Assembly: GCA_016928555.1 (NCBI GenBank)
Contig: JAFGKM010000005.1
Location: 9,758 to 73,757, forward strand
Source of the DNA: Candidatus Omnitrophota bacterium
GTDB taxonomy: Bacteria > Ratteibacteria > UBA8468 > B48-G9 > JAFGKM01
DNA: 64,000 nt
Reading direction: 5' to 3'
In this document: one piece after another, positions 26,984 through 40,846 of the stretch
Layout of the letters: every line of letters begins with the position of its first letter
Position numbering within the stretch: the stretch's first letter is position 1
Translations under genes and position numbers: made by a program
The notes under the pieces: model-generated
The model's database searches: none
What the model was told of the DNA's origin: nothing
The model's input: only the letters and a program-made list of their open reading frames with translations

Positions 26984-28297
26984 ATGGCGGAAAAAAAGAA
27001 AGAAATTTTGTATACAGGTTCGGACACGGAAGGTGGGATTACCTCAGGTTACAATATGAATGACGGAGTAAAGTTAAAGGTTCCGTATTCCTTTTTCGGT
27101 TCCATATACGATGAAGAGGAAGAAAAAGCTGTTTTGAAAGCCATGAAGCAGGAATCCCAGACAATGGGGCCGCAGGTTGCGCTTTTCCAGCAGGAATTTG
27201 CAAAAAAGTTTGAGGTAAAACATGCCTTTGCCACCACAAACTGTACTACTGCAATGCACGTGGCAACACAGGCATTTGGAATAAAAGAAGGGGATGAGGT
27301 GATTGTTACGCCCAATACATTTATTGCCACTTCGCTTGTTATTCTTAAGGAAGGTGCTAAGCCGGTATATGCAGATATCAATCCCAAAACGTTCAATATA
27401 GACCCGTCGCAGATTGAAGATAAGATAACGGACAGAACCAAAGCCATATACGTGGTTCATTACGGCGGACAGATGTGCGATATGGATCCCATTATGGAGA
27501 TTGCCAAGAGACACAATCTTTATGTAATGGAAGACTGTGCACATGCCCATGGAGCTAAATACAAGGGGCGTCAGGCTGGAAGTATAGCAGACATTGGATG
27601 TTTCAGTTTCCATTCCCTTAAGAATATCACTACTTTGGGTGAAGGCGGAATGATTACAACGAACAATGATGAATTTGCAGACAGAATTGGCAGGATTCGC
27701 TGCATGAGTTTAACTCACTGGCCGCCGGAGCAGAAGGTTTTTGAATTTGCAGGCTTCAGGATGGAAAAAACGGATGTAAAGGATTACTGGATACCGTCTC
27801 ATTTTGACGTAATTGACGACAACGGAAAATGGGGCAACAATTACCGTATGAATGAAACCCAGGCGGCTGTCGGCAGGGCGCAGTTAAAAAAGCTGGACAT
27901 GCTTATTAGCAAAAGAAGGGAAAATGCCCACTATCTCACCAATAATCTGCAGAGCATAAAAGGTATAACTCCCGTATACGAAGACCCAAATTGTTTCCAC
28001 AGCTATCATCTTTATACCCTCTGTATTGAGGCTGAAGAACTTGGTGCATCCAGAGATGATTTCATGAGGGTGCTTTACAGGGAAGAGGGGATACAGGGTA
28101 TACAGCATTATCAGCCCTCGTATCACTTTACCGGATTTAAGAAACTGTATAATTATCCCGACAGATTATGTCCAAATGCAGAGAAATTCTTTTACGGGAG
28201 GGAAACAAATCTGCCTATGCATCCAAGACTGACAAAAGAAGAACTTGATATGATAGTTACAGGGATCAAGAATGCTGCCGGTAAGGTGCGCTCCTAA
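26984..28297 (+). CDS. DegT/DnrJ/EryC1/StrS family PLP-dependent sugar aminotransferase
   Basis: PLP-lysine region SFHSLKNITTLGEGG and an aminotransferase class-V-like fold. Confidence 0.85.
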   Translation: MAEKKKEILYTGSDTEGGITSGYNMNDGVKLKVPYSFFGSIYDEEEEKAVLKAMKQESQTMGPQVALFQQEFAKKFEVKHAFATTNCTTAMHVATQAFGIKEGDEVIVTPNTFIATSLVILKEGAKPVYADINPKTFNIDPSQIEDKITDRTKAIYVVHYGGQMCDMDPIMEIAKRHNLYVMEDCAHAHGAKYKGRQAGSIADIGCFSFHSLKNITTLGEGGMITTNNDEFADRIGRIRCMSLTHWPPEQKVFEFAGFRMEKTDVKDYWIPSHFDVIDDNGKWGNNYRMNETQAAVGRAQLKKLDMLISKRRENAHYLTNNLQSIKGITPVYEDPNCFHSYHLYTLCIEAEELGASRDDFMRVLYREEGIQGIQHYQPSYHFTGFKKLYNYPDRLCPNAEKFFYGRETNLPMHPRLTKEELDMIVTGIKNAAGKVRS

Positions 28298-28355
28298 TTA
28301 CAAGAAACTGGAAGCCGCAATTTTTCCCTTCGCTTGAACTTAAGGGAATATGCGG

Positions 28356-29690
28356 CTATAGAATAGGCAGATACGCGGTCAGTTCGTACTCATGCACCCG
28401 TTTTCTGTACTCGTCCCACTCAATTTTTTTCGCCGCAATCAGGTTGCCGAATATGTGTTCGCCCAGAACCTCTTGAAGCAGGCTGCTTTTCTCGGCCACC
28501 TCAATCGCCTCTATCAGACTGCCCGGCAGGCATTCCACGCCCAGCTCCTTCATCTCCCCGGCCGTCAGGTGGTACACGTCCCTCTCCAGCGGCTCTGCCA
28601 GCGGGTACTTGTTGTCTATCCCCTTCATACCCGCGGCGAGCATGCATGCAAACGCAAGGTACGGGTTGCACGCAGGGTCGGGAGAGCGGAATTCCACCCG
28701 CGTCGCCTTCTCCTTGCCCGGCTGGTACATCGGCACCCTCAGCATTGCGCTGCGGTTGCGCCGCGCCCAGCAGATGTACACAGGCGCCTCATAGCCGACT
28801 ACAAGCCGCTTGTAGGAGTTTACCCACTGGTTGCAAACAAGCGTTATCTCCCGCGCGTGCTTCATTATTCCGGCTATGTAGTGCTTGCCTTCCGCGGACA
28901 GGTGGTATTTGTCGCCCGCATCAAAAAACAGGTTCTTCTCGCCCTTGAATATCGACTGGTGCGTGTGCATACCCGAACCGTTGACTCCGTATATCGGCTT
29001 GGGCATGAATGTCGCGTATAACCCCTTTATCTGCGCTATCTCTTTCAACACCATGCGGTAGACCATTACTATGTCTGCCATCATCATACCGTCCTTGTAC
29101 CGCAGGTCTATCTCGTGCTGGGACGGAGCTACCTCGTGATGCGAGTATTCTACGTCTATCCCCATCTCCTCAAGCGTAAGTATTGTTTCCCTGCGCACCT
29201 CGTTGCCCGCATCTAAAGTGGTTATGTCAAAATAGCCACCTTCGTCCAGTATCTCTGTGGTTTTCTCGTTCTTGAATATGAAAAATTCAAGTTCAGGGCC
29301 TGCATAAAAGGTGTAACCCTTCTTTCCTATCTTATCCAGCTCTTTCTTCAGGATGTACCTTGAGTCGCCTTCGTACGGCGTGCGGTCCGGGTTGAGTATG
29401 TCGCAAAGCATGCCCGCTACGGCTTTTTCTTTGGGCCTGTATGGAAGCACGGTGAAGGTGGACGGGTCGGGCATCGCCACCATGTCGGACTCGTCTATCC
29501 GCGCAAAACCCTTTATGGACGAGCCGTCAAATCCCATGCCGTCTTCAAGGGCATGTTTTAACTCATCCGTCGTTATGGTGAATCCTTTCATCTGCCCGGT
29601 GATATCCGCAAACCACAACCGGATGAACTTTACGTCTTTTTCCTTGGCAAGCTTGAGAATATCGTCCTTCTTTATATCTTTATTGTTCAT
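28356..29690 (-). CDS. glnA: glutamine synthetase type I
   Basis: GS beta-grasp N-domain and catalytic domain motifs (KPIYGVNGSGMHTHQS; MLRVPMYQPGKE...RVEFRSPDPA). Confidence 0.95.
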   Translation of the reverse strand: MNNKDIKKDDILKLAKEKDVKFIRLWFADITGQMKGFTITTDELKHALEDGMGFDGSSIKGFARIDESDMVAMPDPSTFTVLPYRPKEKAVAGMLCDILNPDRTPYEGDSRYILKKELDKIGKKGYTFYAGPELEFFIFKNEKTTEILDEGGYFDITTLDAGNEVRRETILTLEEMGIDVEYSHHEVAPSQHEIDLRYKDGMMMADIVMVYRMVLKEIAQIKGLYATFMPKPIYGVNGSGMHTHQSIFKGEKNLFFDAGDKYHLSAEGKHYIAGIMKHAREITLVCNQWVNSYKRLVVGYEAPVYICWARRNRSAMLRVPMYQPGKEKATRVEFRSPDPACNPYLAFACMLAAGMKGIDNKYPLAEPLERDVYHLTAGEMKELGVECLPGSLIEAIEVAEKSSLLQEVLGEHIFGNLIAAKKIEWDEYRKRVHEYELTAYLPIL

Positions 29691-29742
29691 TTTTTCTCCG
29701 ATTATACCTCATAGGTTAGAATTTTGATCTATTTTACCATAT

Positions 29743-29760
29743 TTGTTTTATATAAAACAA
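29743..29760. promoter_or_regulatory. perfect 18-bp palindrome TTGTTTTATATAAAACAA over the -35 region of the glnA promoter
   Basis: The palindrome abuts an extended -10 (TGgTAAAAT on the minus strand) about 45 nt upstream of the glnA ATG. It is a candidate operator. Confidence 0.4.
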
Positions 29761-29770
29761 AATTCTGCCG

Positions 29771-31711
29771 TTAAGATTGAGGTTTAAGGATTATACATGC
29801 AAGAGGAGGGATGGTAAGGGAAAGTGAGAAAGTATGGTTATGGCAGGATGCGGCTTCAGGTTGTACAGCTCCCAGATTGCCGAGATTCCCGCCCCCGTAA
29901 AACTTTGAGTCGCTGTTAAAAATTTCTTTGTATTGAACGTCCGCCGGGACGCCTATCCTGTATTTCGTCCTCGGCACCGGGGTGAAATTGAATATGGCTA
30001 TGACAAAATCCTCTTTTTCCTTTCCCCTGCGCATAAAGGATATAATACTGCTGTCCCTGTCGGAGAAGTCAATCCATTCAAAGCCCTCGTCATCAAAGTC
30101 CTTTTCAAAAAGCGCCTTTTCACTTTGGTACAGGGCGTTGAGGTCGGAAACAAACTTCTTTGTCCTCCGGTGCATGTCTTTTTCAAGAAGGTGCCATTCA
30201 AGTTCCCTGTCATAGTTCCATTCGGATATCTGTCCGAACTCTCCGCCCATAAATAGCAGTTTCTTTCCCGGATAGCAGTACATATATGCCAGGAGAAGGC
30301 GGAGATTTGCGAATTTCTGCCACGAATCGCCCGGCATCTTGGAGAGAAGCGATTTTTTTCCGTAGACGGTTTCATCATGAGAAAGAGGAAGCATGAAACT
30401 TTCGGAGAACGCATATAAAAGGCCGAAGGTCAAAGAGTTTTGATGGTGTTTTCGGTGGATGGGGTCGAGTGAAAAATATTTCAGCGTATCGTGCATCCAG
30501 CCCATGTTCCATTTAAAACCGAATCCAAGACCACCCTCGTAGACCGGGCGGCTTACCTTGGGCCATGCCGTTGATTCTTCAGCGGCGGTGAAGGAACCGG
30601 GGAGCCTGTTGTAAACGGCGGTGTTAATCTTTTTGAGGAGCTCAATCGCCTCAAGGTTCTCCCTGCCTCCGTAAATGTTGGAAATCCACTCGCCTTCTCT
30701 TCTTGAATAATCAAGGTACAGCATTGAAGCGACGCCGTCTACACGCAGTGCGTCAATACGATAATCCTCAAGCCAGCTCAACGCGCTGTTAACAAGAAAA
30801 TTGCCTACCTCATGCCTTCCGTAATTGAATATTGCGCTTTTCCAGTCGGGGTGGTCTCTTTTACGCGGGTCGGAGTGTTCATAGAGGTGCGTCCCGTCAT
30901 AGTAATAGAGCCCAAACTCGTCCTTGGGAAAATGGGCGGGCGTCCAGTCAAGTATAACCCCTATGTTGTTTTTGTGAAGGGAGTCTATAAAAAAACGAAA
31001 ATCATCGGGAGAACCGTGCCTGCTTGTGGGCGCGAAAAATCCGGTTGTCTGGTAGCCCCACGATGAATCGAGGGGATGTTCCGTGACGGGCATGAATTCC
31101 ACCCAGTTGAATCCGGTTTCTTTAAGATACGGAATAAGCAGTTCAGAAATCTCCCTGTAGTTCAGGAAAAAACCGTCTTTTCTCCTTCTCCATGAACCGA
31201 GATGCATCTCATATATTGCGACCGGCTGTCCATATATGTTTTTAGGATTTATCCTTCCGTGTTTCCATTCGTAATTGGAATTGTAAGTAAGCGAGGCGTT
31301 GGACGGGCGCACTTCATAAAATGAGCCGTAAGGGTCTGACTTCAGCATAACCCTGCGCCCGTTCATTATTTCAAACTTGTAAGGTTCGTATTCCCCTACA
31401 CCGGGTATGAAAATCTCCCATATTCCGGAGTTCCCGAGGCATCGCATCCTGTGCGCCCTGCCGTCCCAGCCGTTAAAATTTCCTTTGACGCTCACGCTTT
31501 CGGCGTTGGGAGCCCATACCGAGAAGTTGTATCCTGCCGTTCCGTAAACGACACGTTTATGCGCCCCGAGTTTCTTGTATATTTCAAAGTGGCTTCCCTC
31601 GTTGAAAAGATAGAGGTCGAGGTGGCTGAAAAAAGATTCCCTGAAATGCAAAGCCTCGTTCCTGCTTTTTTCTTCGTGCTTTCTAACCTGTTTTCTTTCT
31701 ATACCGTCCAA
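29771..31711 (-). CDS. glgB: 1,4-alpha-glucan branching enzyme (GH13)
   Basis: VILDWTPAHFPKDE and RVDGVASMLYLDYSRREGEWI motifs; 646 aa. Confidence 0.9.
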   Translation of the reverse strand: MDGIERKQVRKHEEKSRNEALHFRESFFSHLDLYLFNEGSHFEIYKKLGAHKRVVYGTAGYNFSVWAPNAESVSVKGNFNGWDGRAHRMRCLGNSGIWEIFIPGVGEYEPYKFEIMNGRRVMLKSDPYGSFYEVRPSNASLTYNSNYEWKHGRINPKNIYGQPVAIYEMHLGSWRRRKDGFFLNYREISELLIPYLKETGFNWVEFMPVTEHPLDSSWGYQTTGFFAPTSRHGSPDDFRFFIDSLHKNNIGVILDWTPAHFPKDEFGLYYYDGTHLYEHSDPRKRDHPDWKSAIFNYGRHEVGNFLVNSALSWLEDYRIDALRVDGVASMLYLDYSRREGEWISNIYGGRENLEAIELLKKINTAVYNRLPGSFTAAEESTAWPKVSRPVYEGGLGFGFKWNMGWMHDTLKYFSLDPIHRKHHQNSLTFGLLYAFSESFMLPLSHDETVYGKKSLLSKMPGDSWQKFANLRLLLAYMYCYPGKKLLFMGGEFGQISEWNYDRELEWHLLEKDMHRRTKKFVSDLNALYQSEKALFEKDFDDEGFEWIDFSDRDSSIISFMRRGKEKEDFVIAIFNFTPVPRTKYRIGVPADVQYKEIFNSDSKFYGGGNLGNLGAVQPEAASCHNHTFSLSLTIPPLACIILKPQS

Positions 31712-33696
31712 TTTTCGTCCTTCGGCGTAAATCTGACCTTGAAAAAATCACCGGCAGGCATTACAAATTCCTGTCCGTTTGTTTCTCTTACCGTTATGTT
31801 AAAAAACGTATTTTCTTCATCTCCTGCGAGTATTTCCGTTTTAGGGATAAGCATTTCCGTTATCCCGCCGCAGGAGTAAATTACAGGTCCGGCATCCCGG
31901 CGGCCCGTATGTATGATAAACTTTTTTTCAACAGGTTCATGGAAATAAATTTGAATCTCAACTGCTTCTTTACTCTTAAAATCCATGCGGATGTAAAGAT
32001 TCTCCTCGTCATAACCGTAGAACATTTTTCTAACTGGCATGCCGGCAGGCATGAATGTCGCCCACAGTCCGGAAGGGTCAAGCTCTATAGCATCATGCCA
32101 CTCATAAAAGTGTGTTATTTTACCGTCAATTACGGGTTTTATGTAAGGGATGATTTCCTCGTACGCGTATCCCTCAACGGGCAGGTTAAGATACTGCGGG
32201 ATTTCGGCTCCGGCCGTTTCGTATATTCTGCGTATGCTGTTTCTGAAATACGCGTCAAACCGCATCTTGGTTTTTTTGTCCGCCGGCAGGCTGTACCACC
32301 AGAACCAGTCGCTGGATTCGGCGAGCATAACAGCTTCCGCAAGTATGTTTTTCTTCTCTTCAGGCAGACAGTTCTCTCTTTCTTCCGCCGCCGCCCTTGC
32401 CTGTTTCAGTATGGACCATGCCTTGTTTGCTGGCTCTCTGCCTATCCAGTTGTCAAAGTTTGTTCCCATCCAGCTTCCGGGGGATATGTGGTCAAAACGC
32501 AGGCGTCTTATATCCGTTTTGAGCGCTTCCGAAAAGGTAACGGTCCTTACGGCATCGTTATTTTCAAGGAATTTATAAAACGCCGTAAGAAATTTTTCTC
32601 CGTAGTCGGGATAAAAGTCCCACGGGTTCTCGCCGTCAAGTATGACTGTCAGCAGACGGCCGTCCATGTTTGAACGGAGAGCGCTCAACCGTTCAGCGAT
32701 ATCCCCGGCGGCATTTTTTTCATCGGTTTTCTGGTATGAAAAACCTATCATGTCCGATATGTGGCGGTCCCTGAAGAAAACGGAGGGGCCGTTTCGAAAG
32801 TCCCATATACTGCAATGTTCTTTCTGAAACAGCGGGTGTGCAAGTGTTTCTTCAAGCAGGCTTTCGTCGGTCGCCGTCCACAAAACGCCTTGTTCGGAGA
32901 ATAACTCGAGGATTTCATCGCTGAGGCTTCCTTCTGATGGCCATATCCCAGCTGCCTGCTTTTTGAATATGCGTTCATACGTTTTCAACCCTTCAAGCAA
33001 TTGCATGCGGGCATCCTGAGGATATGAAAAGACGCCTTCGGGAATGCTCAAAGATGTCTTGGTTTTTCTTGCGGTATCCGTACTGTAAAGAAGGGGAAGG
33101 ATAGGGTGCATCATTGGGCTGGTGCTTATCTCTATCTTCCCTTCATTCATAAGTTCGCCGTACAGGGCAATTACTTCCGAAAATATCATCTTTTCTTTTT
33201 CGTGCAGAAGCTTTCTGTCGCTTTCGCCGAAATTCCTTCCTTTTTTAAAGAGTTCCTTAATTTCTCCGTCAGAAACCGCCGGATGAAAGCTTGCAAGATG
33301 CAGGTAAATTTTCAGGTCTAACAGATCCTGTTCGGAACATGAATTTTCTTCGGCTTTCTCTTTCAGCATATTGATGATTTTATGCCTCCCGAGTATCTGC
33401 GGGGGCATCCCGCCTATAAATGCCAAGACCTCCTCCCTCCCTGCGGAATTCCCCTCTTCAAGCAGAGCCATGAACCTGTCCTTTATTTTACCCGAAGCGA
33501 TGTCTTCTATCTGGATGAGCAGTACCGGCGTAAGATTGAAATTCAGTTTTATCCCGGGGTTTTTCTTTGTCAGGACCGCCATGGGGTAATAGTTGAAAAG
33601 GGTTCGGAATGTCAGGGCGGGGGTGTCTATTTCCCCGTTGTTGACGTCGGCATAGTAAGGCTGGTGCATGTGCCAGAGAATTGATAAATACATCAT
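31699..33696 (-). CDS. glycoside hydrolase family 57 protein (alpha-amylase/4-alpha-glucanotransferase-like)
   Basis: GH57 hallmark LWHMHQPYY at the N-terminus; 665 aa. It overlaps glgB by 13 nt. Confidence 0.8.
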   Translation of the reverse strand: MMYLSILWHMHQPYYADVNNGEIDTPALTFRTLFNYYPMAVLTKKNPGIKLNFNLTPVLLIQIEDIASGKIKDRFMALLEEGNSAGREEVLAFIGGMPPQILGRHKIINMLKEKAEENSCSEQDLLDLKIYLHLASFHPAVSDGEIKELFKKGRNFGESDRKLLHEKEKMIFSEVIALYGELMNEGKIEISTSPMMHPILPLLYSTDTARKTKTSLSIPEGVFSYPQDARMQLLEGLKTYERIFKKQAAGIWPSEGSLSDEILELFSEQGVLWTATDESLLEETLAHPLFQKEHCSIWDFRNGPSVFFRDRHISDMIGFSYQKTDEKNAAGDIAERLSALRSNMDGRLLTVILDGENPWDFYPDYGEKFLTAFYKFLENNDAVRTVTFSEALKTDIRRLRFDHISPGSWMGTNFDNWIGREPANKAWSILKQARAAAEERENCLPEEKKNILAEAVMLAESSDWFWWYSLPADKKTKMRFDAYFRNSIRRIYETAGAEIPQYLNLPVEGYAYEEIIPYIKPVIDGKITHFYEWHDAIELDPSGLWATFMPAGMPVRKMFYGYDEENLYIRMDFKSKEAVEIQIYFHEPVEKKFIIHTGRRDAGPVIYSCGGITEMLIPKTEILAGDEENTFFNITVRETNGQEFVMPAGDFFKVRFTPKDENWTV

Positions 33697-35123
33697 AATT
33701 CGGCCATCTGTCCGTAAATCTCAAGGTATTCGTTAACCGAAGATTTCCATGAAAAATCAAGTTTTATAACGGAGTTTACGCATTTTTCCATCCGTTTTTC
33801 GTCCCCGAATAATTTTAATGCAGATTCAATGCATTTCAACAGCTCCCTGCTCCCTCCCTCAAAGACAAAACCTGTTCCTTTTTCTGAGGCAAAATCATAA
33901 TTGGCTACGGTATCGGCGAGGCCGCCGACATTTCTTACAACGGGTATGGTTCCGTATTTGAAGCTTATCATCTGCCCCAGTCCGCAGGGTTCAAATTTTG
34001 AAGGCATAAGGAAGAAATCGCTTCCCGCGTATATCAGATGCGCCAGCTCGTCGTTGAATCCGAAAGCAACCGATATTTTTTTGGGGAATTTACCCGCCCA
34101 GCGGGTTAATATGTCCTTATATTCAGGTTCCCCGTCTCCGAGGACAACTACCTGCAGGTTCTTTGAAAGGATATCCCCCATTATCTCTGCCAGTTCGTCA
34201 ATCCCTTTTTGTTCGGCAAGGCGCGCCACCATTCCGAAAAGAGGGATATCTTTTCCGTCCTGCAGTCCGAGTTTTTTCTGCAGGGCGGTTTTATTCTCGG
34301 ATTTGCTCTTGAAAGTCCGGTATTTTTTGTGTATGAACCTGTCGAAGGACGGGTTCCATATCTGGTAGTCTATCCCGTTTATTATGCCTCTCAACTTGTT
34401 CTGATTTTTTCTCAGAAGGCCGTCAAGACTGTTCCCGAATTCCGGGGTAAGTATTTCTTTCGCATACCTGGGGCTGACGGTATTTACCATGTCGGAATGT
34501 ATTATCGCGGCCTTCATGAAATTTACATTGCCGTAAAATTCAAGCTCCTCCATCTGGAAATAATGCCAGGGCAGTCCGAGAATCTGAAATGTATCTGCGC
34601 TGAAAACGCCCTGGTATCCCAGGTTATGAATGGTGAAAAGAGTTTTCGCCCGGGGGAAGATATCCCTGTAGTTTGTTTTCAGATACAAAGGGAGAAGCGC
34701 AGTGTGCCAGTCATGGCAGTGGAATACGTCCGCATCTATCTTCAAAAACCTTGCGGCTTCCAGAACCGCTCTCGGTAAGAAAGAAAACCTCTCGGCGTTA
34801 TCGGGATAACCTTTGCCTCCATGGCCGTATATCCCGTCCCTTTTAAAATAGCCGGGATTGTTTATGAAATATATTCCCGGGAACTCAATACTTTTTTCGA
34901 GGATGCATTTTTCCTTCCTGTGTTCGGAAAAGACGACGTCGAAGATTCCGATTTCAGTTGTTTTGTGGCTGTTCTTTGTCTGTTTGTACAGCGGAATGAA
35001 GAGAGAAACATTCTGTTTCCCCTTGAGATATTTGTATAAAGAGCCTACAACGTCAGCCATGCCCCCTGCCTTTATAAACGGTACGGCTTCGGCGGCCGCA
35101 AGGCATATATTTTTCCTGTTCAT
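33693..35123 (-). CDS. glgA: glycogen synthase (GT5, ADP-glucose type)
   Basis: N-terminal KAGGMADVVGSL and GT-B fold; 476 aa. It overlaps the GH57 start by 4 nt. Confidence 0.9.
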   Translation of the reverse strand: MNRKNICLAAAEAVPFIKAGGMADVVGSLYKYLKGKQNVSLFIPLYKQTKNSHKTTEIGIFDVVFSEHRKEKCILEKSIEFPGIYFINNPGYFKRDGIYGHGGKGYPDNAERFSFLPRAVLEAARFLKIDADVFHCHDWHTALLPLYLKTNYRDIFPRAKTLFTIHNLGYQGVFSADTFQILGLPWHYFQMEELEFYGNVNFMKAAIIHSDMVNTVSPRYAKEILTPEFGNSLDGLLRKNQNKLRGIINGIDYQIWNPSFDRFIHKKYRTFKSKSENKTALQKKLGLQDGKDIPLFGMVARLAEQKGIDELAEIMGDILSKNLQVVVLGDGEPEYKDILTRWAGKFPKKISVAFGFNDELAHLIYAGSDFFLMPSKFEPCGLGQMISFKYGTIPVVRNVGGLADTVANYDFASEKGTGFVFEGGSRELLKCIESALKLFGDEKRMEKCVNSVIKLDFSWKSSVNEYLEIYGQMAEL

Positions 35124-35172
35124 GGGTTTTCCTTTTTAAAAACTGTGCGATAAATCGCACCGCTACAGTAAT

Positions 35173-35212
35173 GGATCCCTGCCTAAAACATGCAGGGATG
35201 ACAAAAAACGTC
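35173..35212. repeat. intergenic palindromic element copy A (GGATCCCTGCC...GCAGGGATGACAAAAAACGTC)
   Basis: Inverted repeat ATCCCTGC/GCAGGGAT forming a hairpin directly after the galT stop. Its ends are shared with copy B at 37867..37933. Confidence 0.6.
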
Positions 35213-35228
35213 AAATCGCACCGTTACA

Positions 35229-36272
35229 TTAGACGTTGAGAGATTTCAGGAAGTCCGCCACCTCTTCGGGCGGAGTAGGGTTTATGTAAAAACCGGTGCC
35301 CCATTCAAACCCTCCCTGCTTTACAAGCCTGGGCATTATTTCAATGTGCCAGTGATAGTCTTTTTCTATTGTCTGCCAGTATCCCGGACGAGGATACCTG
35401 CTCGGTGCCGTATGAAGCATGAAATTGTAAGACGGGCTGTTAAGCCCCTGAGATATTTTTTTGAAAATTTCCAGCATAATTTCCGCCAGGGACCCTCTTT
35501 CCTTTGCGGTTATTTCCTCAAAATCAGGCGAGTGTCTGAAGGGCATTATTGAAAGCTCAAAGGGGAACCGGGAAGCAAACGGGGCGGTTACGAGAAAAGA
35601 TTCATTTTGGGCGACTATCCTTTTGCCGCTGTCTATCTCCTGGTTTATTATGTCGCACCAGACGCATCTCTCTCTGTATTCGTAATACCATTTTGAACCC
35701 ATGAGTTCTTCCTTGACTCTCTTAGGAACGACGGGCGTTGCTATCAACTGCGAGTGCGGATGGGAAAGAGATGCCCCCGCTTCCTTGCCGAAGTTCTTGA
35801 ATACGAGGATATACCGGAATCGAGAGTCTTTTTTAAGGTCTATGCAGCGCATCTGGTAGGTTTCTATAATATTCGTCATCGTTTCCATGGAATAGTTTTT
35901 TATATCAATGTTCTCTCCCGCGCCGGTTTTGTGCCCGGGGGTTTCTATTATTACTTCGTGGGCGCCTATCCCGTTCATCATATCGTACATTCCCACACCT
36001 CTTTTGTTCAACTCCCCCTCAATTCTCAAGGCGGGGAATTTATTCGGGACGACCCGCACTTCCCATCCGGTACTGTTCGGGGCGGTGAGAGACGGCCTTT
36101 TCGCGAATATCTCGGCAGGAGTCTTGTCTTCATTGCCCGGGCAGAACGGACAAAATGCCTCCTGCTGAGTTTCCGTCGGGCTTGAGAAATCCGACGGCCT
36201 GAATTTTCTTTCGGTGGCGATAACAACCCATCTGCCTATTACGGGGTCTTTCCTTAATTCTGACATATACAC
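35229..36272 (-). CDS. GalT-family (HIT superfamily) hexose-1-phosphate nucleotidyltransferase; possibly ADP-glucose phosphorylase-like
   Basis: CPFCPGNE zinc site and the HPHSQL active-site motif of galactose-1-phosphate uridylyltransferase class I; 347 aa. It is embedded in the glycogen operon. Confidence 0.75.
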   Translation of the reverse strand: MYMSELRKDPVIGRWVVIATERKFRPSDFSSPTETQQEAFCPFCPGNEDKTPAEIFAKRPSLTAPNSTGWEVRVVPNKFPALRIEGELNKRGVGMYDMMNGIGAHEVIIETPGHKTGAGENIDIKNYSMETMTNIIETYQMRCIDLKKDSRFRYILVFKNFGKEAGASLSHPHSQLIATPVVPKRVKEELMGSKWYYEYRERCVWCDIINQEIDSGKRIVAQNESFLVTAPFASRFPFELSIMPFRHSPDFEEITAKERGSLAEIMLEIFKKISQGLNSPSYNFMLHTAPSRYPRPGYWQTIEKDYHWHIEIMPRLVKQGGFEWGTGFYINPTPPEEVADFLKSLNV

Positions 36273-36273
36273 C

Positions 36274-37485
36274 TCACCATTTGTATTTTTTGGGAATTGC
36301 CGTTATTCCGTTGTCCGACACGTAAAACCTTTTTCGGTCAGCCTCAAGATTATAACCTATTTCCGTATAAGGAGGAACATCTACGTTTTTATCTATTATG
36401 GCGCGTCTGATTTTTGAGTGCCGTCCTATATTGACGTTTTCAAATATAATGCTGTCGGTTATTTCCGAATAGCTGTGCGCCCTGACATTAACTGAAAGCA
36501 CGCTGTGAAAAATCCTTGCGCCGCTGATTATACAGCCGCCGGAAATCATTGAATCGGTTACAGAAGCTTTTCTGTCTTCGCCGGAGAAAACGGTTTTTGC
36601 CGGCGGGAACTGCTCCTGGAACGTCCTTATCGGCCAGTCCCTGTCATATAAGTTCAAAAGGGGGTCAATATTTACCAGGTCCATGTTTGCCTCCCAGTAA
36701 GCGTCTATTGTTCCTATGTCCCGCCAGTATTTATTCTCTTTTTTATTTTCGTCGATAAACCTGAAGACGCAGACGTTGCTGCGGCCTATCATTGAAGGGA
36801 TGATATCTTTTCCGAAATCATGGGAACTCCTGGATTTTTTTGCGTCTTCAACGACATTTCTGATAAGAGCATCGAGGCTGGCGACGTATATTCCCATGGA
36901 AATCAGGCATGCGTCCGGGTTTTTGGGGTCGGGGGAAGGGTCATTCGGCTTTTCCCTGAACTCAACAACCTTTTCATCCACAACCTTTAATACTCCGAAC
37001 CTGTGGGCTTCCTTTAGGGGGACTTCAAACGCGCTTATCGTAAAATCCGCTTTGTTTTCAATATGCGCCTGTATAATTCTCCTGTAATCCATCTTATATA
37101 CCTGGTCGCCCGAAAGCAGGAGGATAAGTTTAGGCTTTTCGTCCTCAAGGATGTTTATGTTCTGAAAAACCGAGTCTGCGGTTCCCTGATACCAGTCCTC
37201 GCCTATTCTTTTTTGGGCGGGAACAAGGTCTATGAATTCGCCGAGCTCCCTTGAAAAGATGTTCCAGCCCTCTCTCATGTGCCTTTGCAGAGAAAAGGAT
37301 TTGTACTGGGTGAAAATATAAATTTTCCTCAGGCCGGAATTTATTGCATTGCTTAGAGGAAAATCTATCATTCTGTATATGCCTCCGAAAGGAACAGCCG
37401 GCTTGGTTCTGTCCTTTGTCAAAGGATGCAGGCGCTCCCCTTTTCCTCCCGCAAGCACGAAGGTAGTTATGTCTCTCGGATTCAT
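36274..37485 (-). CDS. glgC: glucose-1-phosphate adenylyltransferase
   Basis: N-terminal FVLAGGKGERLHPLTKDRTKPAVPFGG and a left-handed beta-helix C-terminus; 403 aa. Confidence 0.9.
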   Translation of the reverse strand: MNPRDITTFVLAGGKGERLHPLTKDRTKPAVPFGGIYRMIDFPLSNAINSGLRKIYIFTQYKSFSLQRHMREGWNIFSRELGEFIDLVPAQKRIGEDWYQGTADSVFQNINILEDEKPKLILLLSGDQVYKMDYRRIIQAHIENKADFTISAFEVPLKEAHRFGVLKVVDEKVVEFREKPNDPSPDPKNPDACLISMGIYVASLDALIRNVVEDAKKSRSSHDFGKDIIPSMIGRSNVCVFRFIDENKKENKYWRDIGTIDAYWEANMDLVNIDPLLNLYDRDWPIRTFQEQFPPAKTVFSGEDRKASVTDSMISGGCIISGARIFHSVLSVNVRAHSYSEITDSIIFENVNIGRHSKIRRAIIDKNVDVPPYTEIGYNLEADRKRFYVSDNGITAIPKKYKW

Positions 37486-37844
37486 TGTTCACCCAGGATT
37501 TTTTTTACCTTGTTCTTCAGCAGGCTGATGTCCGTGGTTTTTGTGAGATAAGCATCCGCCGCCCATGTAAGAAACTGGTCTTTATATTGAGGATAGGCGG
37601 TATAGATTATTATGGGAAGGTCTCTTTTTTTCGTCAAAATCTTTCCAAGAGTTTCTATACCGTCCATCTGCGGCATCTGCAGGTCAAGTATCACAAGGTC
37701 GCATTTCTCTTTTCCCACCATTTCCACCGCATCCGTGCCGTTCGAAGAACAAATCACCTCAAACCCGTCTTTTTCAAGCTCCTCCTTGTAAAGCAGGCGC
37801 TCATTCTCCTCGTCTTCCACCAGAAGAATCTTCTTTTTCGCCAT
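37482..37844 (-). CDS. single-domain response regulator (CheY-like receiver)
   Basis: LLVEDEE...D (phospho-acceptor within LVILDLQMP) and a T/K motif; 120 aa. It overlaps glgC by 4 nt. Confidence 0.85.
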   Translation of the reverse strand: MAKKKILLVEDEENERLLYKEELEKDGFEVICSSNGTDAVEMVGKEKCDLVILDLQMPQMDGIETLGKILTKKRDLPIIIYTAYPQYKDQFLTWAADAYLTKTTDISLLKNKVKKILGEQ

Positions 37845-37866
37845 GGTCCTCCCCCTCTTTTTTTCT

Positions 37867-37933
37867 GGATCCCTGCCTACTATCCCTCCTTACAACCTGC
37901 AGGGATAAGTCCGCAGGGATGACAAAATACGTC
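37867..37933. repeat. intergenic palindromic element copy B (expanded)
   Basis: Same termini as copy A, with an internal duplication of the ATCCCTxC / GCAGGGAT arms. It lies directly after the histidine kinase stop. Confidence 0.6.
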
Positions 37934-37961
37934 GCTTTCCACATGTCACTCGCCACTTTTG

Positions 37962-39344
37962 TTATGCGGGCAGATACACGGTTACCGCAGTTCCCCGGTT
38001 TTCTGCGGAGGATACCTCCATCTTTCCCCCGTAGTTTTCAATTATATTTTCAACTATAAACAGCCCCAGTCCGAAACCGCCGGTCTTTGTAGAGAAAAAA
38101 GGCTCCGTCACCCGGGGGATATTTTCACTGGGAATGCCTTTGCCCGTATCGCTGACCGTTATTTTAACAAAAAACGCTTCTTTTGCGCCGGTTATTTTTA
38201 TTGTGCCTGTTTTCATGCTTTCTACAGAGTTGGAAACCAGATTGAACAGCACCTCAAATATCTGGACCCGTTCCGCTTTCATATAAACGTTTTCCTTGAT
38301 GTCGATCTGTATGTTTATGTGCTTTCTTGAAAACTCCAGTTCAAAGAAATCAATGACTTCCTTTACGGTTTCAACAAGGCTTACTCTTTCGACTTTTGAA
38401 GGGGAAAGGAGCGTAAATCCCGACAGTTTGCCGAGTATCTGTTCAAATTTTTTAATCTCCTTCAGAATAATCCCTGCATCTCTTTTTATAATATTAATGT
38501 CTTCGGATTCCGTTATCCTTTTGGCGAAGCCTCCCACCGTTACCAGCGGGTTTTTGATTTCATGGACAAAATAGGAGGCCATCTTGCCTATTGTCGACAA
38601 TTTTTCCTTTTTTATGAATTCTTCCTGCAGGATTTCCATTGCGCTATGAAGTTCTCTTAATTCCTCAAGCTGTCGTTTTATCACGTTGTGGTTGCGGGCG
38701 TTTTCAAGGGCAATGCCGGTCTGTATGCTGAGCAGTGATACGAGCCGGAGGGTAGATTCGTCAACGGGGTTATAGTGGAATGCATTATCAGCCATTATTA
38801 TTCCTATGACATTTCTTGACGAAGACAATGGAAGTATAATTATTTCGGACGGTACGAAGATATCCCGAATTTCTTTGGGGAGGCCGAAATTTTCTTCACT
38901 TATATCCGTCAGGTGGAAAATTTTCCGCTCCGCAATGACTCTTTTGAAGTAATTTTCAGGAGGCAGTTCATCGATGTTTATGACAATATCACAGACTTTT
39001 TCGGGGAATTTCTGAATTGTAACCGAACCTTCCACGGCATGCTGAAGATATGATTCAAGCGGAATGCTCTTTCTGCTTAAATCGCTCCATATCTCAAGCG
39101 CCTCATCTTCATTATACGGCCCGATTCCGGCCTTTCCGTAAATTAAGGCTTTTTCCCTGTCGTAATAGAATACGGATGCGCGGCTCAGTCCGAGTGCGCC
39201 GTTGGCGGTGAGTCCGGTCAGGGTCAACTTCAATATAAAATCTTCGTTAAATGTCCCCTTCAGCGCTTTTGAAATGGTGTGCAAAAGGTATAACTCATAA
39301 TTAAGCAGGCGGCAGGTTTCTTCAAACGTTTTTACCATCAACAC
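37962..39344 (-). CDS. GAF-sensor histidine kinase (GAF-HisKA-HATPase_c)
   Basis: GAF domain; HisKA H-box SYFVHEIKNPL; N, G1 and G2 boxes (SDTGKGIP, GGFGLGL); 460 aa. Confidence 0.85.
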   Translation of the reverse strand: MLMVKTFEETCRLLNYELYLLHTISKALKGTFNEDFILKLTLTGLTANGALGLSRASVFYYDREKALIYGKAGIGPYNEDEALEIWSDLSRKSIPLESYLQHAVEGSVTIQKFPEKVCDIVINIDELPPENYFKRVIAERKIFHLTDISEENFGLPKEIRDIFVPSEIIILPLSSSRNVIGIIMADNAFHYNPVDESTLRLVSLLSIQTGIALENARNHNVIKRQLEELRELHSAMEILQEEFIKKEKLSTIGKMASYFVHEIKNPLVTVGGFAKRITESEDINIIKRDAGIILKEIKKFEQILGKLSGFTLLSPSKVERVSLVETVKEVIDFFELEFSRKHINIQIDIKENVYMKAERVQIFEVLFNLVSNSVESMKTGTIKITGAKEAFFVKITVSDTGKGIPSENIPRVTEPFFSTKTGGFGLGLFIVENIIENYGGKMEVSSAENRGTAVTVYLPA

Positions 39345-39505
39345 CCCTTTTTAATTTATGTCCGTTTATATTATAACGGCATAGATGCTTTTTTTCAACA
39401 GCGCGACTCGTTAAGAGGTGTTTCTTGACAAAGGGAAATATAAGGATAAGATATAAAGTTAAATTGTGTATTTTCGACAGACTCCGGCATAAGTGAGATA
39501 TTTAT

Positions 39506-40846
39506 ATGAAATTTGAAAACAAAGGTAAGATTGGGGATGAAGAAAAGCTGCGCGGCTTGCCATGGAGTATTGCGGGAAATGCTTTCAACAACGTTTTCTG
39601 CCTTTTTACGGTCTTCGGTTCTGTTTTCCTGCTTTTTTTGACGGAACTGGGTTTATCAAAACAACTGATAGGATTTCTACTGTCGCTTTTTCCTTTTTGC
39701 GGCATAATCGCTCCCTTCCTGAGCGGGTACATGGAATATTTCGGAGTTAAAAGGATTTTCCTTTTCTGTTTCGGTCTCCGCAAAGCTGTCATAGCATTAT
39801 TCCTTCTTCTTCCATGGGTTATCGGTTTCTATGGAGAGAGGGCAGGAGTCTATTTTCTTATAACCGCAATATCGGTTTTTGCCGTTCTGCGGGCTATAGC
39901 GGAAACTGCTTATTATGCATGGATGAAGGAATACATACCTGATAATGCGAGGGGAAAATACTCAGCTTTAAACTGGACCGCCGCGGGTATTGCGGGATTA
40001 ATCGCCATTTATTTTGCAAGCCGTATTTTAAAAAGGGAAGGCGGGATAGAAGATTACATGCTTCTTATAGGCGCGGGGTGCATTTTTGGCATTATCGGGG
40101 TTTACTTTATGAGGTTTATTCCCGGAGGCAAACCTTCAGGAAGCCGTAAAAGGCCGACTTTATCGTTTGACGGAATAATTGAGCCTCTGAAAGACCGGAA
40201 TTTTCTTTATTTCCTTGTTGCAGTGGGGATTGCCATATTCGGTTCTCTGCTGTTAGTCTTTCTGCCTCTCTTTGCAAAAGAAAAACTGGGCATTCTCTCC
40301 GGAAACGTCGTTTTGCTCGATAACTTCACCATACTTGGTTCCTTGCTCCTGTGTTTTCTGTGGGGATGGATGTCCGACAGGTTTGGCGGAAGGCCTATCC
40401 TCATGCTGAATATGTGCATATATGCCGGAGTATCCTTAGGCTGGCTTGTTTTCCCGAGGGGGCATTCCCACTCCGTCCTTCTTCTCGCAGCGCTATATTT
40501 CATTTCCGGCAGTACACTTACGGGAAGGGTGGTTGGGGATAACAGGTTTTTATATTCAAGCATTGTTCCGGAAGAAGGGGCGGTCTATTACACCTCGTTA
40601 TTTTACGCATGGATGGGTCTTGCCGGAGGGATTGCACCGCTGGCGGCCGGATATATCCTTAAAAAGTTTGCGGAACTGAATATCCGGTTTGCAGGACATA
40701 CGATAGACTCCTACAGTGTAATCTTCTTTATTAATTTTCTATGCCAGCTGACGGCAATATTTTTTTACAGGAAGGTTAAACCTGACAAACGGATAAAAAC
40801 CCGCCATTTGCTGTTAAGAATGGCCAGACGGTCAATGAACTGGTAA
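39506..40846 (+). CDS. MFS transporter
   Basis: About 12 predicted transmembrane helices; 446 aa; two 6-helix halves separated by a basic loop. Confidence 0.7.
   Translation: MKFENKGKIGDEEKLRGLPWSIAGNAFNNVFCLFTVFGSVFLLFLTELGLSKQLIGFLLSLFPFCGIIAPFLSGYMEYFGVKRIFLFCFGLRKAVIALFLLLPWVIGFYGERAGVYFLITAISVFAVLRAIAETAYYAWMKEYIPDNARGKYSALNWTAAGIAGLIAIYFASRILKREGGIEDYMLLIGAGCIFGIIGVYFMRFIPGGKPSGSRKRPTLSFDGIIEPLKDRNFLYFLVAVGIAIFGSLLLVFLPLFAKEKLGILSGNVVLLDNFTILGSLLLCFLWGWMSDRFGGRPILMLNMCIYAGVSLGWLVFPRGHSHSVLLLAALYFISGSTLTGRVVGDNRFLYSSIVPEEGAVYYTSLFYAWMGLAGGIAPLAAGYILKKFAELNIRFAGHTIDSYSVIFFINFLCQLTAIFFYRKVKPDKRIKTRHLLLRMARRSMNW

Follow-up and report, generated by a model that had tools for sequence, protein, structure and literature searches.

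Bacterial glycogen genes are classically represented by the glgBXCAP operon of E. coli, and control of the pathway is taught as allosteric regulation of GlgC together with regulators that act globally on transcription and after it. Response regulators of a single domain that work by contact with another protein are also familiar, with CheY acting on FliM and CpdR on ClpXP; to our knowledge no receiver-only regulator targets a sugar-nucleotide enzyme, and a literature search found none either. A third point of reference is the plant cytosolic protein At5g18200 (PDB 1Z84, 1ZWJ and 2H39), which has no known partner protein or operon and which acts as an ADP-glucose phosphorylase with a Km for ADP-glucose of 7 µM, as described in the available portions of PMC6329318 and PMC4136846; when the enzyme was targeted to plastids, ADP-glucose was five-fold lower in ss3/ss4 plants (PMC4136846, available portion). 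Here we describe a glycogen gene cluster from an uncultured sediment bacterium (Candidatus Omnitrophota bacterium, GCA_016928555.1; 1.95 Mb in 94 contigs, an estimated 94% complete) in which a relative of At5g18200, called GalTL for GalT-like, is encoded together with a histidine kinase (HK) and a receiver-only response regulator (RR). The cluster lies in the stretch of DNA analysed, a window of 64,000 nucleotides on contig C65. We propose, at a probability of about one half, that it is a glycogen operon with an ADP-glucose drain that is gated at the protein level by its own two-component system.

The cluster comprises seven open reading frames arranged head to tail on the minus strand from 39344 to 29771, and naming with Pfam and NCBIfam gave the order GAF-domain HK, RR, glgC, GalTL, glgA, a gene of glycoside hydrolase family 57 (GH57) and glgB. 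The same order, strand and families had been given for all seven genes in a first-pass annotation made from the letters of the DNA. GlgC (glucose-1-phosphate adenylyltransferase, 36274..37485), GlgA (ADP-glucose-type glycogen synthase, 33693..35123) and GlgB (GH13 branching enzyme, 29771..31711) each pass a curated NCBIfam equivalog or subfamily cut-off, scoring 570.9 bits against a cut-off of 470 for NF001947 and 471.2 against 424.9 for TIGR02091 (GlgC), 538.1 against 328.45 for TIGR02095 (GlgA) and 940.5 against 741 for NF003811 (GlgB). The cluster is therefore like E. coli glgBXCAP in that glgC, glgA and glgB equivalogs are grouped on one strand, and unlike it in that no GlgP or GlgX was found, that a GH57 gene is part of the cluster and that there are three extra genes, for the kinase, the RR and GalTL.

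GalTL (35229..36266, 345 amino acids) belongs by sequence similarity to the GalT branch of the HIT superfamily. Its best relative of solved structure is At5g18200 (1Z84; E 1.4e-61, 211.7 bits, residues 3-343), followed by the GalT of P. aerophilum (6K5Z; E 2.3e-38, 135.3 bits), that of E. coli (1HXP; E 5.7e-19, 71.5 bits) and human GalT (E 8e-15; 57.8 bits for structure 6GQD), and it falls under the cut-offs of both Leloir equivalog models (124.8 against 448 for NF008724 and 87.7 against 102.1 for TIGR00209). The motifs C39-x2-C42, H169-P-H171-S-Q173 (HxHxQ) and C201-x2-C204 are kept, and At5g18200 has the same HxHxQ motif and both CxxC sites; in 27 sequences H169 and Q173 were invariant and H171, the nucleophilic second His, was nearly so. 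The phylum itself supplies a GalT of the other kind, since family f5 carries a compact galT-galE(-galK) operon (L090:1679-4748 and L091:1630-3616) in genomes where GlgA gave no match. This GalT is only 34-37% identical to GalTL and ranks the solved structures inversely, being closest to the P. aerophilum enzyme (2.4e-67) and farthest from At5g18200 (1e-36), with human GalT (6e-46) and E. coli GalT (2e-43) in between. In a quick maximum-likelihood tree of 29 rows, from which At5g18200 was left out, the 26 GalTL rows, hand-picked across context types, formed a single clade (Shimodaira-Hasegawa-like approximate likelihood ratio test 99) that excluded both f5 GalTs as well as E. coli GalT, the last of these being a long branch.

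Compared with Leloir GalT (1HXP, 6K5Z), GalTL thus has the GalT branch and the catalytic motif in common, but the similarity is much weaker, the clade is separate, there are no galK or galE neighbours and there is no co-occurrence with GalK. We conclude that GalTL is probably of the ADP-glucose phosphorylase type, as the first-pass annotation had suggested: its best solved relative, its separate clade and the reverse ranking of the galK-linked GalT all point this way, and GalTL clusters apart from the galK/galE-linked GalTs and follows glgA, not galK. The substrate of At5g18200, ADP-glucose, is the product of the neighbouring GlgC and the substrate of GlgA. Unlike the plant enzyme, which is not known to have such company, GalTL is found in glycogen clusters, where by sequence it appears to be paired with a two-component system. 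Database names for its relatives are DUF4931, DUF4921 or 'galactose-1-phosphate uridylyltransferase', and the family runs to at least 8000 candidates, all at E below 0.001. At one locus (G084:C21:3034-4129) GalTL was matched in two pieces, one with a TAA stop; either the gene is a pseudogene or frameshifted, or the assembly is wrong there.

To place the cluster among its relatives, one genome per species was scanned, giving at least 583 GalTL relatives of which the best 80 loci were kept, and the context of each was read by tblastn with the window proteins, accepting matches with E no higher than 1e-10 that covered half of the query or more. The seven-gene order was present at nine of the 80 loci, eight complete and one cut by a contig end; GlgA directly adjoined GalTL at 24 loci in other lineages, a tandem GalTL pair was seen at 33 and neither arrangement at 14. 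GlgA therefore stands directly beside GalTL at 32 of the 80 loci, in eight seven-gene clusters and at 24 loci elsewhere. As the complete order recurs in eight other genomes while kinase identity drops to 34%, the arrangement is not due to chance. The 24 loci carry the labels Caldisericota, Nitrospirota, Ignavibacteria, Zixibacteria, Eisenbacteria, Elusimicrobia, Planctomycetota, Chlamydiota, Clostridia and Desulfurellales, among others. A GAF kinase, a receiver-only RR of 117-132 amino acids, or both, were confirmed with Pfam at seven loci: GalTL and GlgA stand with a GAF kinase and a receiver of 118-119 amino acids at L038 and L039, and with a triple-GAF kinase and a receiver at L070; L057 has GalTL, a kinase and a receiver; a receiver adjoins GalTL at L064 and L075; and L042 has GalTL, GlgA, GH57 and a PAS/GAF kinase. 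A further locus (L027), also read with Pfam, has two GH57 genes with GalTL, GlgA, phosphoglucomutase and glucose-6-phosphate isomerase.

A strong GlgC match was found in 12 of the 24 GalTL-GlgA genomes and only a divergent one in the other 12, ten of these in frames of 834-858 amino acids, a length that fits a fusion of NTP_transferase to phosphoglucomutase. Fusions of this kind, with a left-handed beta-helix in the NTP_transferase part and 828-847 amino acids long, adjoin GalTL-GlgA or sit near RR-GalTL at three loci (L012:4435-6921, L041:2746-5232 and L064:3116-5659). The tandem GalTL pairs (among loci L013-L085; for example L017:10001-11020 and L017:11026-12021) come mostly from Omnitrophota. 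In 18 of the 33 pairs the first copy has HxRxQ, an Arg standing in the position of the nucleophilic His, and the second HxHxQ; three have His in both copies, and for the remaining 12 the motif of one copy (the first in 11 pairs, the second in one) escaped the regular expression. The pattern suggests a pseudo-enzyme and enzyme pair, perhaps a heterodimer.

Within the phylum, 65 genomes were sampled, 31 of them of high quality. GalTL of the close type and GlgA were both present in 42 and both missing from 22; GlgA alone was seen in a single genome, 64% complete, and GalTL alone in none. An ortholog of the RR was found in 39 of the 42 genomes with GalTL and in one of the 23 without it (75% complete), and the profile scores split cleanly, with orthologs at 143-199 bits and every other receiver at 102 or below. 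GalK, on the other hand, was present in 30 of the 42 genomes with GalTL and in 19 of the 23 without. Across the phylum GalTL tracks GlgA and the orthologous RR, and not GalK. Since related genomes are not independent samples, and a cluster that is lost takes all of its genes with it, these counts show only a unit that is kept or lost together. In family f4 (G102-G110) the genes are on different contigs or 20-25 kb apart, with GalTL and GlgA each in nine of nine genomes and the RR in six of nine; one member, G103, has two RR orthologs.

The HK (37962..39344; 460 amino acids from a GTG, with the ATG at 39338 the likely start) has HisKA, HATPase_c (1.1e-24) and weak GAF_3 matches in Pfam and an H-box VHEIKNPL with His261. 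Its top 19-residue hydropathy is 1.4, so that there is no membrane segment and the kinase should sense an intracellular signal. It aligns end to end, sensor included, with the 460-residue GAF kinase that adjoins GalTL-GlgA in L038 (28% identity, E 5e-55). The RR (37482..37844, 120 amino acids) consists of a receiver domain only, with a complete phospho-acceptor set of D11/E12, D54, T82 and K102; in 16 receiver sequences D11/E12, D54 and K102 were invariant and the position of T82 was Thr or Ser. In addition it has the subfamily motif Y84-x2-Y87-x3-F91-x2-W94-A-A-D-x-Y99, and beyond the usual receiver residues the receivers of these modules share (S/T)AYxxYKxxFxxWAA(D/E)xYxxKS. The RR is 41-53% identical to the receivers beside GalTL in other phyla and 34-35% identical to its best paralog in its own genome. 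HK and RR would together form a two-component system, and phosphotransfer from HK to RR is proposed from adjacency and conservation.

We modelled two copies of GalTL with one RR, each supplied as an alignment, in three runs. The interface score ipSAE was 0.68, 0.67 and 0.68, the best of three controls scoring 0.00; in calibration 116 of 157 solved complexes attained this mark, as did two of 215 mismatched pairs, counts that hold only roughly here because our own alignments and three chains were used. At least 80% of contacts were common to the runs, and the partner had a predicted local distance difference test score of at least 84. In the model the RR contacts are residues 64, 66-68, 70-71, 74, 85-86, 88-95 and 99, which fall on the invariant motif specific to the subfamily, with W94 in the tightest pairs and Y99 among the contacts. 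We take Y99, three residues before the conserved Lys, to be at the switch-tyrosine position, as in CheY. On GalTL the contacts are 36-41, 45, 48-50, 76-77, 105 and 166-167, plus 330-331 of the second copy; they lie around C39xxC42, at K76-F77 of the NKFPAL loop, at V105 and at S166-L167 just before H169. The corresponding CxxC and N-D-F stretches of E. coli GalT presumably line the nucleotide site, and we know of no solved complex between a receiver and a GalT. The model supports direct binding, with the RR docked on the active-site rim of GalTL. Like CheY and CpdR, the RR is a receiver alone with a full phospho-acceptor set, and its modelled contact is made through the alpha4-beta5 face including the switch tyrosine; it would differ from both in having a sugar-nucleotide enzyme as its target. 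The idea of protein-level control by a receiver-only RR, already present in the first-pass annotation, fits the conservation across phyla, the loss of the RR along with the cluster and a complex model that passes its controls.

In the mechanism that we propose, GlgC, GlgA and GlgB would build glycogen and GH57 would trim and debranch it, and GalTL would convert ADP-glucose and Pi to ADP and glucose-1-phosphate, draining the committed precursor in opposition to GlgC and GlgA. The free energy of the glycogen synthase reaction is about -13 kJ/mol and that of glycogen phosphorolysis about +3 kJ/mol; on these textbook values the GalTL reaction comes to about -10 kJ/mol, and the enzyme should therefore drain ADP-glucose in the cell. 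Beside an active GlgC it would burn ATP to ADP and PPi, and beside GlgA it would pull glucan back toward glucose-1-phosphate, so that GalTL must be off during glycogen synthesis, which would give a reason for a dedicated switch. The kinase would read an intracellular metabolite through its GAF domain and phosphorylate the RR on D54; the RR, having no output domain, would bind GalTL through its alpha4-beta5 face (W94, Y99) at the active-site rim, and binding would gate the drain, allowing the cell to flip between storing and returning glucose without a futile ATP-to-PPi cycle. We infer which reaction GalTL catalyses and which way it runs in the cell, as well as what the kinase senses and whether regulation is positive or negative.

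A number of observations weigh against this proposal. Three of the 42 GalTL-positive genomes of the phylum are without an RR ortholog. In the class around G046, sampled as 121 genomes at least 85% complete around one GalTL-GlgA carrier, the RR subfamily is found in 85 genomes, often twice, and where both positions are given it is at least tens of kb distant from GalTL; there, the subfamily may serve other partners. The controls for the complex model were unrelated proteins, not other receivers. Similarity alone does not fix the substrate of the bacterial GalTL members, and as the genome has a lone GalK and no second GalT, a side role for GalTL in galactose use is possible. Finally, two spacers within the cluster bear predicted hairpins, one with a terminator-like site, so that transcription may be split. 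The GalK in question is a GalK-like GHMP kinase that stands alone on another contig (G000:C82:12290-13441; L089:5291-6442), with no galT or galE beside it, and no GalT-family gene besides GalTL was found in the genome.

The alternative with the most to be said for it, to which we give a minor but real chance, keeps the two-component system acting at the protein level and places its target elsewhere, on GlgC, GlgA or an outside protein, with the modelled contact a false positive. It would account for the overlap of the RR gene with glgC by 4 nt in this phylum and for the RR orthologs far from GalTL in the G046 class and family f4, and the absence of other receivers from the controls leaves room for it; against it, the modelled contacts fall on invariant residues specific to the RR subfamily, and the RR-bearing loci outside the phylum have no glgC nearby, with L057, L064 and L075 having GalTL and no GlgA beside the RR, a pattern that is biased toward GalTL since the loci were collected by a GalTL search. 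An ordinary Leloir galactose-1-phosphate uridylyltransferase that has come to lie in a glycogen cluster by happenstance seems to us improbable. Such an enzyme would fit the matches of GalTL to Pfam and NCBIfam GalT models, the GalK-like gene in a genome with no other GalT-family gene and the labels that sources attach to the relatives; but the NCBIfam matches are under their cut-offs, the best solved relative is an ADP-glucose phosphorylase, the galK-linked GalT of the phylum is a different paralog with the inverse ranking of structures, and GalK is as frequent without GalTL as with it, whereas GlgA follows GalTL in 42 of 43 genomes. Lower still do we rate the idea that GalTL works in the opposite direction and supplies glycogen synthesis with ADP-glucose while sparing ATP (ADP + glucose-1-phosphate -> ADP-glucose + Pi), which we consider very improbable. 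The chemistry is reversible in principle and half of the 24 GalTL-GlgA genomes are without a strong GlgC match, yet all 24 have a nucleotidyltransferase match (the long frame noted above in ten of those 12), a full GlgC is encoded in the window, the net conversion of glucose-1-phosphate to glucan is unfavourable at cellular Pi/glucose-1-phosphate ratios on the textbook free energies, and the plant enzyme lowers ADP-glucose (PMC4136846, available portion).

A different use of reversal would have GalTL and a reversed GlgA form an ADP-cycling route in place of the missing glycogen phosphorylase: glucan and ADP would give ADP-glucose, ADP-glucose and Pi would give ADP and glucose-1-phosphate, and the sum would be the phosphorylase reaction. 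On textbook free energies this sum should run toward breakdown at cellular Pi/glucose-1-phosphate ratios, and the distribution of phosphorylase is suggestive. No PF00343 phosphorylase, GlgX-type GH13 or GH15 was found in the genome, which, being 94% complete, does not prove their absence; PF00343 was matched in only one of the 65 genomes of the phylum, in none of the nine seven-gene-cluster genomes and in eight of the 24 with GalTL beside GlgA in other lineages, compared with 24 of the 33 with tandem pairs and 11 of the 14 others, counts from related genomes whose completeness is mostly not established. The eight of 24 also tell against the route, as does the class around G046, where GalTL is found in 115 of the 121 genomes and a divergent GT35-type frame of about 860 amino acids in 86. 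As this match occurs in 81 of the 115 genomes with GalTL (and in five of the six without), GalTL frequently coexists with a phosphorylase, and it is doubtful that it generally substitutes for GlgP, as the first-pass annotation had it. GH57 and MalQ could, moreover, already degrade glycogen by hydrolysis and disproportionation. We regard the ADP-cycling route as unlikely. A joint reading, in which phosphorylated RR docks on and switches GalTL, and GalTL with reversed GlgA provides glycogen phosphorolysis with ADP recycled in a phylum lacking GlgP, seems to us a shade less likely again; if it were true, GlgA would serve both synthesis and breakdown, and a two-component system would switch between the two through an enzyme and not through DNA.

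GH57 (31699..33696, 665 amino acids) is amylopullulanase-like. The family also includes branching enzymes and 4-alpha-glucanotransferases; the window protein scored far under the cut-offs of the NCBIfam branching-enzyme models. Its nearest solved relatives are chains of the Aquifex aeolicus amylopullulanase AaApu (PDB 8ZYI and others; E 6e-77 to about 1e-76, residues 2-493), an enzyme that cleaves alpha-1,4 and alpha-1,6 bonds according to the available portion of PMC12106739, and E255 and D354 align with the AaApu catalytic dyad Glu256/Asp352. Both dyad residues are thus conserved; the window protein differs from AaApu in having an extra 170 residues, and an amylopullulanase role would follow from similarity. 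This C-terminal part (residues 495-665, window 31699-32214) has no Pfam family and is kept in related clusters, where tblastn matches were full length. We propose that GH57 trims and debranches glycogen, and the earlier view that it replaces the classical debranching enzyme agrees with a nearest relative that cuts both bonds, with the conserved dyad and with the failure to find a GlgX-type GH13 in the genome. A debranching candidate on contig C57, picked up by a weak GDE_C match, was rejected as an alpha-L-rhamnosidase-family protein. MalQ is present on another contig, and glycogen breakdown here would otherwise rest on the in-cluster GH57 and MalQ.

The junctions between the genes were read from the DNA. 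The 4-nt overlaps of RR with glgC and of glgA with GH57 are present as ATGA, and the 13-nt overlap of GH57 with glgB is also as first annotated, the TTG start of glgB being preceded by AAGGA. The gap between glgC and GalTL, previously given as 2 nt, is really 1 nt from a GTG start or 7 nt from the ATG at 36266, which has a better-placed GAGG, and what had been taken for an overlap at the start of glgA is instead a spacer of 105 nt between GalTL and glgA. HK and RR, whose junction had been passed over, are separated by 117 nt, so that the kinase is not translationally coupled. The description of a single, translationally coupled operon therefore applies to RR-glgC-GalTL and to glgA-GH57-glgB and does not extend across the two repeat-bearing spacers. 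Overall, the first-pass annotation had the right direction on enzyme type and on protein-level control, and went too far in writing of one operon and of a replacement for GlgP.

Both long spacers carry the same element, TTTTGTCATCCCTGC-loop-GCAGGGATCC, which is predicted to form a stable hairpin (z -2.5 and -2.9). The copy in the HK/RR spacer (37869..37920, minus strand) is nested, reading TGTCATCCCTGC ... GCAGGGATCC, with -35 kcal/mol and z -2.5; the copy in the GalTL/glgA spacer (35175..35199, minus strand) is near-identical to one at C78:10925, with which it has extra flank in common. The repeat, with a consensus of about 50 nt, (A)AAGYGACGnTTTcTGTCATCCCTGC-9 nt-GCAGGGATCCrG, is found at 14 loci in the genome (G000), two of which are the only long spacers of the operon; the others are C8:21205, C36:877, C50:18777, C50:24846, C51:26773, C56:10940, C58:1106, C63:4050, C65:3301, C68:40799, C81:7746 and the C78 copy. 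It looks like a repetitive extragenic palindromic (REP) element or a miniature inverted-repeat transposable element (MITE). The motif was absent from eight related clusters, and in six of these eight both spacers are about 16-58 nt, lengths that are approximate because they come from tblastn ends, with little beyond a ribosome-binding site. We read the long spacers as having probably arisen when a dispersed repeat inserted into an operon that was compact in the ancestor. Just 5' of glgA there is also a weak terminator-like hairpin, GTGCGATTTATCGCAC followed by a T-run (35145..35160, minus strand); terminator-like sites in the region number 16 against 14.8 (standard deviation 4.1) in shuffled sequence and are not enriched. 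A weak promoter-like site, TTGAAA-17-TATAAT (39370..39398, minus strand), lies 5' of the kinase gene and, with 11 of 12 matches, is the best in 28000-40000; the 23 promoter-like sites of the region are not clearly above the 16.5 (standard deviation 4.6) in shuffles. In metatranscriptome contigs from two runs of the same study only stretches of about 35 nt were matched, in conserved parts of glgB and GH57, and these contigs come from other organisms, given their mismatches and unlike flanks.

Upstream of the cluster is a divergent gene for an MFS transporter. On the other side, a type I glutamine synthetase gene, glnA (28356-29690), lies on the same strand 80 nt 3' of glgB, with a promoter-like site within the end of glgB; glnA was not found beside the cluster in related loci by tblastn of the window proteins.

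Our literature search turned up no paper describing bacterial glycogen clusters with a gene for a GalT-like protein or an ADP-glucose phosphorylase, and none on a kinase and receiver inside such clusters. Among the papers listed as using the term 'ADP-glucose phosphorylase' or a variant of it, nearly all are, by title, on plants or algae, and in a non-plant paper (PMC8158581) it is used for GlgC. The available portion (first 300,000 characters) of a review from 2024 on alpha-glucan enzymes in prokaryotes (PMC11046441) does not contain the terms 'ADP-glucose phosphorylase', 'GalT', 'two-component', 'response regulator' or 'histidine kinase'. The parts of the cluster are of known families and a glycogen operon is of a known kind; the combination was not found in print.

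What the comparison across lineages points to is an ADP-glucose phosphorylase-type enzyme whose place next to glycogen synthase is fixed in many phyla, and which would be a new member of the pathway. With it would come a dedicated switch, in that the genes found with GalTL encode a soluble sensor kinase and a receiver-only regulator, and the modelling places the regulator on GalTL. The GalTL family is present in closed genomes in the sample of the G046 class, which makes bench tests feasible. If the proposal is true, it would give a role to the large DUF4931/DUF4921/'GalT' family and an example of a two-component system that controls a metabolic enzyme by contact, and it would reveal a new point at which carbon storage is controlled in anaerobic and uncultured lineages that are widespread.

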